This document shows positions 1 to 62,112 of a stretch of 64,000 nucleotides of DNA, one piece after another. The DNA is from Escherichia virus TH58: the sequence record MT446423.1; one strand, 5' to 3'. A program made the translations under genes and the position numbers. Within the stretch, counting starts at the first letter, position 1, and every line of letters starts with the position of its first letter. The notes beneath the pieces are model-generated. The model was not told the origin of the DNA, ran no database searches, and worked only from the letters and a program-made list of their open reading frames with translations.

Positions 1-30
1 ATCTCTTATTCTAGCTATTCATTATGTCCT

Positions 31-369
31 ATGAGCCGAGCTCACGGTAAAGATGTATCATATCTTTCAATTCGGAAACGTGTAAACTTCAAACGTAGTA
101 CAGAGTATGTTGGTGGTCTCTTTGTTAAAGATAATAAAATAACCCGTATTAGTTATCCTTTAAGTGTAGGTCAAAAAGATGTTGATGTTGATTTAGACTT
201 AACTGAAAGTAACATTAATCGTATTGCTTCTGTATATTTTGATATCGATGAAAAAATTGTAGTGTGTGGATACGAATTACCACCTGAAGAAAAGGCTGAA
301 ACAATTGAAGTCGAATTAGAAATTTCTGTTGATGACCAAATATTTAATGCATTTATGAATCGAGGTTAA
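31..369 (+). CDS. hypothetical early protein
   Basis: ATG ORF upstream of primase in T4-like 61.x region; no recognisable motif. Confidence 0.4.
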   Translation: MSRAHGKDVSYLSIRKRVNFKRSTEYVGGLFVKDNKITRISYPLSVGQKDVDVDLDLTESNINRIASVYFDIDEKIVVCGYELPPEEKAETIEVELEISVDDQIFNAFMNRG

Positions 370-370
370 A

Positions 371-568
371 ATGACTACTGCAATTTGCACTGGTTCTAAA
401 ATTAGTGTTTTTACAAGTTTTGAAGATTATGAAGTTGTTTCAAAACACCAATGCCATATTAGCGTAAAAGCTAATGATGGTGTAATTTGGAATATTCCAC
501 ACTATGAAGACACTACATATGAAGTCACAGATGCGAACGGTGATAAAGCGATCTTTGTGATTGATTAA
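371..568 (+). CDS. hypothetical small early protein
   Basis: ATG ORF, tightly packed with neighbours. Confidence 0.35.
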   Translation: MTTAICTGSKISVFTSFEDYEVVSKHQCHISVKANDGVIWNIPHYEDTTYEVTDANGDKAIFVID

Positions 569-587
569 ATATACTCAGGAGGTACCT

Positions 588-1055
588 ATGGGTATTATTA
601 ACACTGCAATAGATTCTGTTTATGCATATAAGTTTATTCGACTAATGCAAAAACCTTTTACCGAATGGAAAGCATACGAAGCCAAAATCATCGATGAACG
701 TGGAAGTGTTCTTAAACGCCCTTCCACTCCCGAAGAGAAAGCTGCGTATACACCTTTTCATGCTTCAGTTCGTTCAATGAAGCGAATGATGAGCACTATT
801 CCAGGTCTTAATGGAATGGCCTCAATGATGTCTGCCTGGAGTGCTGTAGCTTCACGCTATAACATTACGGAAGAACAACAGAAAGAAATATTTAAAGAAC
901 TCCCTTTATTTGAGGATATGGTTGCTGGTGATTCAGGTGGCAGCCCTCAAGCTATTGCATCAGGAACAACTACAGGTGCAGTCGTAAATAAAGGTCCAGA
1001 AAAAATTCCTTCCAAGAAAAGAAAGCGAATTAAAGTAAATATTAATAAGTTGTGA
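588..1055 (+). CDS. hypothetical protein with basic C-terminal tail
   Basis: GGAGG RBS 7 nt before ATG at 588; C-terminal KKRKRIK. Confidence 0.45.
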   Translation: MGIINTAIDSVYAYKFIRLMQKPFTEWKAYEAKIIDERGSVLKRPSTPEEKAAYTPFHASVRSMKRMMSTIPGLNGMASMMSAWSAVASRYNITEEQQKEIFKELPLFEDMVAGDSGGSPQAIASGTTTGAVVNKGPEKIPSKKRKRIKVNINKL

Positions 1056-1094
1056 TATGATGGCCTTATTAATTTAAGGCCTCTGGAGAATACT

Positions 1095-2117
1095 ATGGCT
1101 GAATGGATAGATAATGAATTTGCTTATCGTGCGTTTTCTCACCTACCTCGTTTTAGACAAATCAATAATTCAAGCACATTTAAATTAACATTTCGATGCC
1201 CAGTTTGTGGCGACTCCCAGACAGATGCAATGAAAGCTCGCGGATGGTATTATGGCGGTACTCCAGGTAATGTGCATTGCTATAACTGTCAATATCATAA
1301 TACGATTTCCGGATACTTAAAAGAGTATGACGAAGAGCTTTATCGTGAATATCTAATGGAAGTTCGTAAAGAAAAAGCTAGAATGGAACCAAAGATTGAA
1401 AAGGTTCCTGAACATAAACCAGAACCGGAGAAAAAGACTATAAATTCTTTGCCGTCTTGTTCTCGTCTGGACAAGTTGCCTGAAGAGCATCCTATTGTGA
1501 AATATGTTAAGTCTCGGTGTATTCCTAAAGAATCATGGAACAGATTATGGTTCACATTAGAATGGCCTAAATTGGTCAACAAGATTCAACCAGGCACGTA
1601 TAAGAAAGAGATTCCAGAACCGCGTTTAGTGATTCCTATTTTTAATAAAGACGGGAAGGCTGAGTCATTTCAAGGACGTGCACTTCGCAAAGATGCTCCT
1701 CAGAAATATATCACTATTAAAGCGTTTGAGTCTGCAACAAAAATTTATGGTGTTGAACGTGTTAAGGAAGGAGACGTCTGGGTAATGGAAGGCCCTATTG
1801 ATAGTTTATTCATACCCAATGCAATCGCTATTACAGGCGGCTCAATAGATTTAGATGTGGTACCATTTAAAGAACGTCGGGTATGGGTGATGGATAATGA
1901 ACCTAGGCATCCGGATACTATAGCTCGTATGAAGCGATTAGTAGATGCAGGCGAACGTGTTATGTTCTGGGATAGAGCTCCATGGAGTTCAAAGGATGTG
2001 AATGATATGGTAATGAAAGAAAATGCAACACCACAAGAAATTTTAGAATATATGAAACAGAATATTTCAAGTGGGTTGCATGCTAAAATGAGATTATCTC
2101 GTTATTCGAAGATTTAA
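1095..2117 (+). CDS. 61: DNA primase (T4 gp61-like)
   Basis: 340 aa; N-terminal zinc ribbon CPVCG...CYNC; length and context match T4 gp61. Confidence 0.9.
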   Translation: MAEWIDNEFAYRAFSHLPRFRQINNSSTFKLTFRCPVCGDSQTDAMKARGWYYGGTPGNVHCYNCQYHNTISGYLKEYDEELYREYLMEVRKEKARMEPKIEKVPEHKPEPEKKTINSLPSCSRLDKLPEEHPIVKYVKSRCIPKESWNRLWFTLEWPKLVNKIQPGTYKKEIPEPRLVIPIFNKDGKAESFQGRALRKDAPQKYITIKAFESATKIYGVERVKEGDVWVMEGPIDSLFIPNAIAITGGSIDLDVVPFKERRVWVMDNEPRHPDTIARMKRLVDAGERVMFWDRAPWSSKDVNDMVMKENATPQEILEYMKQNISSGLHAKMRLSRYSKI

Positions 2118-19801: not shown

Positions 19802-19831
19802 GTTTACAACTAAGTAGGACTATGATATAGT
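19802..19831 (+). promoter_or_regulatory. T4-type early promoter inside inverted repeat (PeSL-like)
   Basis: GTTTAC, TATAGT; arms TAGGACTA/TAGTCCTA flank the -10. Confidence 0.55.
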
Positions 19832-19857
19832 AGTCCTATCTAAAAGAGGATAACATC

Positions 19858-20313: not shown

Positions 20314-20343
20314 GTTTACATCAAGGTAGGATTATGGTATAGT
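20314..20343 (+). promoter_or_regulatory. T4-type early promoter inside inverted repeat (PeSL-like)
   Basis: GTTTAC, TATAGT; arms GTAGGATTA/TAGTCCTAC. Confidence 0.55.
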
Positions 20344-20371
20344 AGTCCTACTGAAACATGAGGAACACAAA

Positions 20372-20574: not shown

Positions 20575-20604
20575 TTGTACAAACTCTTGAGAGCAGAGTA
20601 TAAT
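20575..20604 (+). promoter_or_regulatory. T4-type early promoter inside inverted repeat (PeSL-like)
   Basis: TTGTAC, TATAAT; arms GAGAGC/GCTCTC. Confidence 0.5.
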
Positions 20605-20648
20605 GCTCTCATGGATTACAAAAACATTAATCAATTGAGGAAATTAGC

Positions 20649-22765: not shown

Positions 22766-22841
22766 GTGCCCTAGCCTTAGGATTTCTCGGTGCAATAGCT
22801 GCACTAGTGATTTGGCTGTATTGGTTAGACAAACATGATTA

Positions 22842-27230: not shown

Positions 27231-27256
27231 AATTAAAGGGGCTAACGCCCCTCTCC

Positions 27257-39876: not shown

Positions 39877-39905
39877 TATACAATCAGATAGGGTTATGTT
39901 ATAGT
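39877..39905 (+). promoter_or_regulatory. possible early promoter inside inverted repeat
   Basis: weak -35 TATACA, TATAGT -10, arms ATAGGG/CCCTAT. Confidence 0.35.
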
Positions 39906-39940
39906 AGCCCTATCAAATCAAAAGTGAAGCGGAGAATAAA

Positions 39941-42156: not shown

Positions 42157-42219
42157 AAATTAACGGGATAAATACTATCCCGTTTGGAGTAATGTCTATC
42201 AACCTATACTGAGGAATAT

Positions 42220-45672: not shown

Positions 45673-45694
45673 GGGACTTCGGTCCCACTTTATT
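45673..45694 (+). terminator. hairpin (weak terminator) after nrdB
   Basis: GGGAC-TTCG-GTCCC with short T-rich tail. Confidence 0.4.
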
Positions 45695-48694: not shown

Positions 48695-48723
48695 TTTACA
48701 AACTCTCGGGAGCGGAGTATAAT
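48694..48723 (+). promoter_or_regulatory. T4-type early promoter inside inverted repeat (PeSL-like)
   Basis: GTTTAC, TATAAT; arms GGGAGC/GCTCC. Confidence 0.55.
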
Positions 48724-48751
48724 GCTCCTATGGATAATTGAGGAAATCTAA

Positions 48752-50819: not shown

Positions 50820-50849
50820 GTTTACAACATGGTGGAGTTGTGATACTAT
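50820..50849 (+). promoter_or_regulatory. T4-type early promoter with spacer hairpin
   Basis: GTTTAC, spacer ACAAC..GTTGT, TACTAT. Confidence 0.5.
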
Positions 50850-50877
50850 AACTCTACCAACAAATGAGGAAATAGAA

Positions 50878-54313: not shown

Positions 54314-54318
54314 TTTTA

Positions 54319-54341
54319 GGGAGACCGAAGTCTCCCTTTTG
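54319..54341 (+). terminator. rho-independent terminator after small basic ORF
   Basis: GGGAGAC-CGAA-GTCTCCC hairpin plus TTTT. Confidence 0.65.
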
Positions 54342-54816: not shown

Positions 54817-54845
54817 GTTTACTTTGGTACAGGTTATGTTATTAT
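54817..54845 (+). promoter_or_regulatory. T4-type early promoter inside inverted repeat (PeSL-like)
   Basis: GTTTAC, TATTAT; 10-bp arms TTGGTACAGG/CCTGTACCAA flank -10. Confidence 0.55.
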
Positions 54846-54886
54846 AGACCTGTACCAACAAACAACTTAAACATCTGGAGAATAAA

Positions 54887-55252
54887 ATGAACTACACCAA
54901 CTTCGAACGTAAATATGTTTCTAACGGTATCGCTGGTTCTATTGATACGATTTGTTTATGGAAACATAAAAATGGTTCAGTATGTGAAATTGAGCAGTAT
55001 ATGACTCCTAATTACGTTTATATGCGATTTGAAAATGGCATCACGGTTTCAGTCACAATGGAAGGTTCCAACTTCAAAATTGCATTAGATGACGATTTCC
55101 GTCAACGTGATTTAGGTACTCATCCTTGCTGGAACGGTGTTAATCGTAAACTTCTGGTTAAAACTTGGATTCGTCATATCCTGAGTAACCGAGCTAAACC
55201 TGAACATCTCGAAGCAATCTTTGATGTAGTTCTTAACGAATTCGATATCTAA
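54887..55252 (+). CDS. hypothetical protein
   Basis: 121 aa; own early promoter cassette. Confidence 0.5.
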   Translation: MNYTNFERKYVSNGIAGSIDTICLWKHKNGSVCEIEQYMTPNYVYMRFENGITVSVTMEGSNFKIALDDDFRQRDLGTHPCWNGVNRKLLVKTWIRHILSNRAKPEHLEAIFDVVLNEFDI

Positions 55253-55287
55253 TTTAACTGGGAGCCGAAGCTCCCAGTGAGGAAATT

Positions 55288-55902
55288 ATGTTTAAAGTTA
55301 ATACTTTTTATAAAATGAATTTTAAAAATGGGGATATTACTCCACGCCTTAAAAACATGTTCTCATATGACCTTATTGAGCCTTTTGAAGTTTTAGAAGT
55401 TACTGATGCCGGCTCGGTTTGTGAAATTAGAACTTCTGAAGGTAAAATTTATCAGGCAGGTGTTGGTAAATTTAGTAATTGTTTTACTTTAATATTCTCG
55501 ACCGATTTAGATGAGCATTTTATTGAATGTCCTAACCCTAAGGTCTACGAAGTTCCACATCAAGAAACTAAGAAAAACGGCCCGCACGAATATACGAAGG
55601 TTGAAACTCCTCACGGCGTGATGTGGCGTCATAACTCTCCTTTTGGAAGTAAAGGAACATTTGCTCAACCATCTAAACCGTATGACGATGAAAAATACAT
55701 CGTCGTCTTTTTATCTGAACAGGGTACTCAAGACCGTGGATGCCAACGAAGTGGTTTACTAAGTGAACTTGAAGCTCATAACCAAGCACGTGAATTCGTT
55801 GAGAAAAATCCTGGTTCTGAAGCTCTAGTCATGAAAGCAATTACTCAATATATCACTGCTCAACCTGTTGTTCATCCGGTAGAAATTAATTTCGTTAAGT
55901 AG
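55288..55902 (+). CDS. hypothetical protein
   Basis: 204 aa. Confidence 0.5.
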   Translation: MFKVNTFYKMNFKNGDITPRLKNMFSYDLIEPFEVLEVTDAGSVCEIRTSEGKIYQAGVGKFSNCFTLIFSTDLDEHFIECPNPKVYEVPHQETKKNGPHEYTKVETPHGVMWRHNSPFGSKGTFAQPSKPYDDEKYIVVFLSEQGTQDRGCQRSGLLSELEAHNQAREFVEKNPGSEALVMKAITQYITAQPVVHPVEINFVK

Positions 55903-55932
55903 TTTACATCCAAGGACGGATTAGAGTATAAT
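55902..55932 (+). promoter_or_regulatory. T4-type early promoter with spacer hairpin
   Basis: GTTTAC, spacer ATCCAAGGACGGAT, TATAAT. Confidence 0.5.
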
Positions 55933-62079: not shown

Positions 62080-62088
62080 ACCCCTAAA

Positions 62089-62112
62089 GGGAGACAACGT
62101 CTCCCTTTTTTC
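62089..62112. terminator. terminator between convergent genes (alt-distal ORF and gene 54)
   Basis: GGGAGAC-AAC-GTCTCCC hairpin plus T7 on + strand. Confidence 0.6.

Follow-up and report, generated by a model that had tools for sequence, protein, structure and literature searches.

What does a stable RNA hairpin do when it stands immediately before a start codon and lacks the T tract of a terminator? Escherichia virus TH58 was predicted to carry two such stem-loops, one before a gene called as primase (site 1) and one before an open reading frame beginning at 55288 (site 2), with RNase processing or translational control as the proposed functions. We examined both in the 64-kb window (the whole stretch of DNA analysed), which belongs to an RB69-like Mosigvirus of the T4 group and is 97–98% identical to CEV1, CAU_ECP01, and PECP20. 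Read directly, the sequence contained both stem-loops where they had been placed, without T tracts and 6–13 nt ahead of a Shine-Dalgarno (SD)/ATG, and the gene call held up: the ORF after 1062–1081 is primase (gene 61). ORF 55288 is gp30.6A. Stable intercistronic hairpins in T4 mRNA are a classic observation, known since 1988 (Tuerk et al. 1988, summarised in PMC4371310; PMC1702504).

Structure and setting of the two stem-loops

Site 1 lay in a 39-nt gap between the gp61.1 homologue and primase gene 61 (Table 1). The TGA stop codon of the gp61.1 homologue (1053–1055) adjoined the element, and the stem was followed by TCTGGAGAATACT and then by the ATG at 1095. The stem of 7 bp (4 G:C) had a folding energy of -12.0 kcal/mol (z = -2.05), and 8 of 200 shuffled sequences were equally stable, so that site 1 taken alone was only marginally beyond chance and its reality rests on conservation. 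Two T residues were present in the 8 nt 3' of the stem, and the terminator scan made no call there. The primase SD GGAGAATACTA fitted the RegB/S1 consensus GGAGRAYARAA at 9 of 11 positions, with a disfavoured C at position 9, a base reported to be absent from good sites at this position (PMC1702504). The C-terminal ~50 aa of the 164-aa upstream ORF matched the entire 54-aa gp61.1 of T4, and the RB69 annotation gives a gp61.1 of 92 aa; the length of this gene is thus very variable between genera.

Site 2 occupied a 35-nt gap between the homologue of gene 30.7 and 30.6A. Its core, CTGGGAGC-CGAA-GCTCCCAG, spanned 55258–55277, and a flanking A and T extended the stem by one pair to the coordinates in Table 1; GAGGAAATT came next, and then the ATG at 55288. 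The hairpin folded with -16.9 kcal/mol (z = -5.3), and none of 200 shuffles was as stable. One T was found in the 8 nt 3' of the stem, again with no call by the terminator scan. The promoter-like sites before 30.7 and after 30.6A place the site 2 hairpin inside a two-gene early unit. The SD of 30.7 in T4 is a known RegB site, and the SD of 30.6A is GAGG and lacks GGAG; the site 2 stem does contain GGAG, in structured form and so of the RegB-resistant class. A terminator on the opposite strand, which reads C(UUCG)G at site 2, was rejected: there is no minus-strand T tract, the flanking genes are on the plus strand, and relatives carry UUCG on the plus strand. At both sites the SD and AUG lay 3' of the stem and were unpaired in the MFE and centroid folds.

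Table 1 Features of the two sites and hairpin classes in the 64-kb window.
Feature	Coordinates	Strand	Details
gp61.1 homologue, long	561..1055	+	164 aa; from ORF list; matches to phrog_2086 and phrog_1823
TGn, -10-like hexamer and GG (TGA TATGAT GG)	1053..1063	+	conserved TAtaATGG; probable -35-independent promoter core
Site 1 stem-loop	1062..1081	+	GGCCTTA (1062-1068) / loop TTAATT (1069-1074) / TAAGGCC (1075-1081); no T tract
Primase SD and start	1085..1097	+	GGAG (1085-1088), ATG (1095-1097); SD 3 nt 3' of stem
DNA primase, gene 61	1095..2117	+	identity confirmed
Early-promoter-like site before 30.7, which it would drive	54818..54845	+	TTTACT-16-TATTAT with TG; equivalent -35/-10 signals annotated in TuIa (AJ621579)
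30.7 SD	54877..54887	+	GGAGAATAAAA; perfect RegB/S1 target consensus (PMC1702504)
Gene 30.7 homologue	54887..55252	+	121 aa; 96% identical to T4 gp30.7
Site 2 stem-loop	55257..55278	+	ACTGGGAGC / CGAA / GCTCCCAGT; 9 bp, 6 G:C; no T tract
30.6A SD and ATG	55279..55290	+	GAGG, within conserved TGAGGAAA; RBS annotated in TuIa
gp30.6A	55288..55902	+	204 aa
Next early-promoter-like site	55903..55932	+	TTTACA-18-TATAAT, 11 of 12; equivalent annotated in TuIa and NBG1
Hairpin class 1: UUCG hairpins with T tracts	3557, 12445, 18972, 22841, 31042 (minus), 39365, 54318, 59583, 62086		terminators
Hairpin class 2: PeSL-like early promoters	19814, 20325, 39887, 50830 and others		GTTTACA, then stem-loop enclosing -10
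Hairpin class 3: bare hairpins directly 5' of SD			small class; includes site 1 and site 2

Strong perfect hairpins were ~6-fold enriched in the window: counting stems ≥7 bp long that include four or more G:C pairs, we found 21, compared to 3.24 ± 1.62 in 100 dinucleotide shuffles. Under a stricter definition (8 bp, 5 G:C) there were five, site 2 among them, compared to 0.32 in shuffles. A census over all intergenic gaps divided the hairpins of the window into the three classes of Table 1. A permissive scan of both site regions with Rfam covariance models returned nothing near the gathering score, only noise.

The second class recalls the PeSL (promoter-early stem-loop) cassettes of RB49/phi1 and other T4-like phages, which run from a stop codon through a stem-loop attenuator and one or more promoter boxes to an SD and start; in one subclass the stem-loop lies just 3' of the -10 box, and PeSL units occur at points of gene gain or loss (Arbiol et al. 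2010; Comeau et al. 2014). The PeSL-like units of the window (19814–19839, 20325–20352, 39887–39914, 50830–50859, 20588–20611, and 48708–48729) have GTTTACA as the -35 element and then a stem-loop of 9–13 bp, with the -10 box inside the loop or an arm and an SD and ATG following.

Several other hairpins in the window deserve mention. Stable hairpins without a clear T tract also stand just 5' of starts at 42162–42184, 45673–45686, and 27235–27254 (minus strand); at the last of these the stem AGAGGGGC may take in the SD of a minus-strand gene. A GGGAG(A)C...G(T)CTCCC stem is common to six hairpins (22841, 31042, 39365, 54318, 55257, and 62086), most of which are terminators, and stems of this type contain GGAG in the structured, RegB-resistant class of Durand et al. 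(PMC1702504). The hairpin at 62086–62108, AAAGGGAGAC-AAC-GTCTCCCTTT, separates convergent genes, is flanked on its two sides by A and T runs, and looks like a bidirectional terminator.

Conservation of the hairpins in related phages

Relatives of site 1 were collected from IMG/VR loci by an alignment-based primase scan, and 27 distinct hairpin-bearing variants were compared. A hairpin of this type stood 8–20 nt 5' of the primase ATG in Dhaka-, Winkler-, Kanagawa-, Gapriver-, and many other lineages, down to ~52% primase identity, and at least 14 different, fully complementary stems were present among the 27 variants. The closest case, from Dhakavirus (GGCTCTA-TTAATT-TAGAGCC), has two compensatory pair changes and the same loop. 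Across 18 distinct arm pairs, 97.6% of cells were paired compared to 52% in shuffles, the percentage being inflated because the variants were selected for having a hairpin. Double changes occurred at all seven pair positions, and by direct counting none of 1,000 shuffles matched the observed covariation. The T tract was variable: 11 of the 27 orthologues have at least 5 T in 8 nt, as in GGGACCT-AATA-GGGTCCC-TTTTTATTTG, eight are intermediate, and eight, including this phage, have two or fewer, which we counted as absent. Kosakonia phage 305 is among the phages whose orthologue carries a T tract.

The site 1 element is not tied to primase. T4 has neither the element nor a spacer, the 61.1 stop lying 2 nt ahead of the gene 61 ATG. 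In lineages with a mobE insertion, the hairpin and SD stay as a unit by the 61.1 stop, ahead of mobE, and primase is left without a hairpin. In Klebsiella phage 5N (locus L022, 215–271) and Edwardsiella phage PEi20 (locus L024, 241–305), mobE was inserted exactly 3' of the hairpin and SD, which it uses, and the primase start overlaps the end of mobE. A primase-specific operator at site 1 was ruled out on these two grounds, the missing spacer in T4 and the position of the element before mobE.

For site 2 we compared 30 distinct junctions after gene 30.7 from IMG/VR and GenBank loci, reaching down to ~47% gp30.7 identity. A hairpin was present in nearly all 30, in at least eight genera (Mosig-, Tequatro-, Winkler-, Karam-, Jiaoda-, Gelderland-, and other viruses), as a G+C stem of 5–9 bp with a tetraloop, followed after 0–10 nt by TTGAGGAA. 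The loop is mostly TTCG, and TTTG, TTCA, TACG, GAAA, and CGAA also occur. T residues after the stem never exceeded three in any lineage, so that none of the 30 junctions has a T tract. At its 30.7/30.6 junction, at about 129,463–129,503 in T4T coordinates, T4 has a different hairpin in the same place, GAGGGGC-TTCA-GCCCCTT, followed by the TGAGGAAA SD and likewise without a T tract. The inner five pairs were paired in 105 of 105 cells, a figure somewhat inflated since the 21 distinct variants were selected for a tetraloop hairpin and anchored on the loop. Double changes (G-C to A-U or C-G) were found at four of these five pairs; none of 500 shuffles reached the score, and controls with slid partners collapsed. 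In one IMG/VR locus (L132, 2706796116) the hairpin is cleanly lost and the stop codon is directly followed by TTGAGGAATTGAAAATG, and two further lineages have degenerate hairpins.

The original prediction had named absence from relatives as the finding that would speak against it. Both hairpins are instead kept as structures across genera with compensatory changes, and this structural conservation marks them as functional elements and not chance palindromes. The comparison also went beyond what had been predicted, in the conserved -10-like TATAATGG motif at site 1, in the 11 of 27 site 1 orthologues that are terminators, and in a GenBank stem_loop annotation for site 2.

That annotation means that site 2 was already known, having been annotated since about 2004–2006. 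The 1.4-kb TuIa entry AJ621579 labels the hairpin 'stem_loop' and follows it with an RBS and '30.6A' (204 aa), with early-promoter signals on either side. The window is 94% identical to TuIa over 86 nt, a match that covers the annotated stem_loop and RBS. The two thus share locus, position, stem (TGGGAGC-TTCG-GCTCCCA in TuIa), RBS, and 30.6A, and differ in that the loop is inverted in the window (CGAA for TTCG) and the stem has one or two extra base pairs. A conserved stem-loop in the 30.x gene cluster was reportedly described by Truncaite et al. (2006, Virology 344:378), to which the GenBank annotation lends only indirect support. In the TuIa entry (our locus L148) the minus_10_signal and minus_35_signal labels at 78–106 and 1164–1194 are apparently swapped, GTTTAC lying at the feature called -10.

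Loop inversion was seen at a second hairpin. Both 54318–54337 and 55257–55278 have CGAA loops on the plus strand. The loop is TTCG at either position in NBG1, the IMG/VR relative L009, and TuIa, whereas Shigella phage SSE1 combines TTCG at the 54318-type site with CGAA at the 55257-type site. These flips are independent 4-nt inversions in a perfect palindrome, consistent with strand-switching, and through them the extra-stable C(UUCG)G of the mRNA becomes C(CGAA)G.

Such events at palindromes occur at the level of DNA, and they are one of several observations that would fit the hairpins being recombination or module-junction sequences, PeSL-like, at which neighbouring genes are swapped and for which a role in RNA would be secondary. 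The gene after the site 2 hairpin varies (30.6 in T4, 30.6A, and others) while the hairpin and SD are retained as a unit, mobE entered exactly after the corresponding unit at site 1, and PeSLs provide a precedent. Recombination by homology, however, needs conserved sequence, and the stems covary and diverge; moreover, their complementarity is kept through double changes, which points to selection on a folded single strand. We consider a module-junction function improbable.

A -10-like motif adjoining the hairpin before gene 61

In 26 of the 27 hairpin-bearing variants of site 1, a -10-like hexamer was found at a fixed register, right after the stop codon and abutting the 5' arm. It reads TATGAT in this phage and TATAAT, TATTAT, TAAAAT, TACAAT, TAATAT, or TAAGAT in relatives; T1, A2, A5, T6, and the GG that comes next never change, in contrast to positions 3 and 4. 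A TGn extension is present in 15 of the 26 variants, with the TG supplied by the TGA stop codon, and is missing from 11. The -35 region had a mean of 2.3 matches in 6 compared to a background of 2.5, and no MotA box of the form GCTT(N11-16)TAnnnT was found in window positions 1–1100, that is, over the 1.1 kb 5' of primase. A classical -35/-10 promoter and a MotA-box middle promoter were both rejected on this basis, and a promoter here, if there is one, is of the -35-independent TGn/-10 type. Its activity is uncertain given the random -35 region and the variants lacking TGn.

Promoters of the TGn/-10 type, which have TG at -15/-14 and a TAnnnT hexamer and are active without a -35 box, are immune to AsiA (T4 transcription review, PMC2988021). 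We read TGA TATGAT GG as a probable -35-independent, AsiA-insensitive promoter. In T4, gene 61 has its own mapped promoter, P61 (PMC2988021), which sets a precedent for a dedicated primase promoter; we located the MotA box and -10 of P61 at the start of T4 61.1.

The geometry of the site 1 unit is consistent with such a promoter. Since the 5' arm is always 5–8 nt long, the seventh nucleotide 3' of the hexamer lands in the loop or on the closing base, as it does in 25 of the 26 variants; 18 of the 26 have a purine there. A promoter at site 1 would thus start at ~1068, at the top of the hairpin. With a start inside the hairpin, transcripts from this promoter would lack the 5' arm and could not form it. 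The combination of hexamer and hairpin occurs once within the window. Other TAnnnT-plus-hairpin matches in the window are a TAA stop and then A/T ahead of ordinary terminators; the site 1 hexamer, unlike these trivial TAA-derived matches, lies entirely 3' of the stop codon.

We also considered a mini-ORF or reinitiation relay from the invariant AUG within TATAATGG. It was rejected, as peptides, frames, and stops are inconsistent across lineages (MMALLI-stop, MALLI-stop, MGL-stop, in-frame fusions, and out-of-frame run-ons), and the conservation of T0/A1 would be left unexplained. In the literature searched, the cross-genus TATAATGG-hairpin unit before gene 61 was nowhere described; it is a variant of known terminator/promoter composites.

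Candidate functions of the hairpins

The reading we favour, though we put it at somewhat less than an even chance, is that both sites are conserved intercistronic stem-loops that mark transcript boundaries in early and middle units and act as weak attenuators and RNase barriers, the one at site 1 being joined in addition to the probable promoter. We infer its functional steps, every one of them, from hairpins that exist, are conserved, and covary, from the motif with its geometry, and from the variable T tracts. The hairpin would form in read-through RNA from the upstream gene. With no U tract, RNA polymerase would be poorly stopped, which makes it a weak attenuator at most. In the finished mRNA, it may obstruct 3'-to-5' exonucleases as well as the decay cascade of RegB and RNase G/E, which runs 5' to 3'. 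The upstream cistron (61.1, or 30.7 with its perfect RegB site at the SD) and the downstream one (primase or 30.6A) would thereby have separate lifetimes, while the downstream SD and AUG would stay single-stranded. Decay of T4 early mRNA proceeds by RegB cleavage and then 5'-to-3' cuts by RNase G/E, together with 3' exonucleases (PMC3014915), and RNA structure blocks RegB (PMC1702504). The identity of the loop is dispensable and conservation extends only to the pairing, a pattern that suits a purely structural barrier and speaks against a site bound by a protein. As T4 lacks the site 1 element and L132 the site 2 hairpin, neither is essential.

Hairpins acting in this way are familiar from bacteria as mRNA-stabilising terminal stem-loops and obstacles to RNase E scanning, for example the 5' stem-loop of ompA and the 3' hairpins of REP elements. 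The likeness to our sites, which we draw by analogy, lies in a stable hairpin, not conserved in sequence, that would stand in the way of exonucleases or of RNase E/G acting from the 5' end.

Another family likeness is to the C(UUCG)G hairpins of T4, which are short G+C stems between genes, some with and some without U tracts (PMC4371310, PMC1702504). Most site 2 orthologues, among them those of TuIa, NBG1, and the majority of genera, have C(UUCG)G on a GGAG-containing stem. The window differs: the plus-strand RNA of site 2 has C(CGAA)G, a loop that lacks the extra stability, and site 1 has a UUAAUU hexaloop. With PeSLs, both sites share a stable stem-loop in a single intergenic unit that ends in the SD and start of the next gene. 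In contrast to PeSLs, site 1 has only a -10, with or without TGn, no -35 or AT-rich UP element, and an upstream part that is coding, and site 2 has no promoter. True PeSL-like units elsewhere in the window look different from both. Full PeSL membership, which takes a complete sigma70-type promoter, was accordingly rejected for lack of the -35/UP part.

Compared to intrinsic terminators, both sites have the G+C-rich hairpin at a gene end, and site 1 orthologues are canonical terminators in Kanagawa-, Winkler-, and several other lineages; both differ in having no U tract (about five or more U in 8 nt) and in that the RBS of a gene in the same orientation comes immediately afterwards. These features bear on the possibility that the hairpins are leaky rho-independent terminators, at which termination sets the ratio of upstream to downstream gene expression and, for instance, keeps primase low relative to the genes before it. 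TransTermHP/WebGeSTer labels of 'terminator' at both sites in OL960576, and at site 2 also in ATK47/48, agree with this, as do the true T tracts in 11 of the 27 site 1 orthologues and the terminators at 22841, 39365, and 54318, in which a stem of this GGGAG(A)C type is followed by a T tract. It is opposed by the presence of only two and one T in the 8 nt after the stems, with neither called by the terminator scan, and by site 2, where selection has kept the hairpin in its 30 variants and never the tract that termination needs. Leaky termination as the main function is therefore unlikely in our view.

RNase processing, one of the two functions originally proposed, would have RNase E/G cut 5' of the stem, or RegB cut in a GGAG SD 3' of it, and leave the hairpin as a protective 5' or 3' end. 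Each stem has an A/U-rich single-stranded stretch directly on its 5' side (UGAUAUGAU; UAAUUUA), many lineages have GGAG with an A-rich tail as the primase SD, and cleavage by RNase E beside structures is documented for T4 gene 32 (PMC3014915). On the other hand, the primase SD of this phage carries the disfavoured C noted above and the SD of 30.6A is GAGG, not GGAG. Judged from these sequence features, processing is plausible but, as the primary role, rather unlikely, and it overlaps largely with the barrier reading without excluding it.

Translational control, through a repressor operator or by tuning how efficiently the next RBS is used, fared worse than RNase processing and has only a slight chance of being correct. 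It drew on the position of the hairpins immediately 5' of the SD, from which 3 nt separate the stem at site 1 and 0–4 nt at site 2, on the conservation of the TGAGGAAA SD together with the site 2 hairpin, and on the hairpin operators of T4, such as that of gene 43. However, the SD and AUG are outside the stems at both sites, in contrast to the SD-sequestering hairpins of T4 e, soc, and mobE. The pairing is conserved but not the sequence of stem or loop, which makes a site for a sequence-specific protein less likely, and stem-to-SD spacing among relatives of both sites ranges from 0 to about 10 nt. T4 expresses primase without the site 1 element, which goes with mobE rather than with primase where mobE has taken it over, and the mini-ORFs from the embedded AUG have no consistent frame or stop position.

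Within the favoured reading of the hairpins as boundary-marking attenuators and barriers, site 1 may have a further property. It is possible, though somewhat doubtful on the sequence evidence, that the unit before gene 61 in most Tevenvirinae other than T4 is a compact 'self-bypassing terminator-promoter'. Read-through RNA would form the hairpin, and terminate there given a U tract, while RNA started at the promoter would always reach primase. In sister lineages with a U tract, the unit would be a terminator bypassed only by promoter-initiated transcripts. Primase would in this way be insulated from upstream early transcription and stay expressed once AsiA has silenced the promoters that depend on a -35 box.

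In its present form the finding is nothing out of the ordinary in T4 biology. For annotators, it means that TransTermHP/WebGeSTer 'terminator' calls at both sites in Mosigvirus are unlikely to mark efficient terminators. If the self-bypassing arrangement at site 1 is real, it would explain AsiA-resistant transcription of primase without a MotA box in many T4 relatives, where T4 uses P61, and would offer synthetic biology a natural design for a terminator that is bypassed by the transcripts of one promoter. If the favoured reading of both sites is correct, the hairpins would help T4-type phages to give genes within one transcript different mRNA lifetimes and levels.
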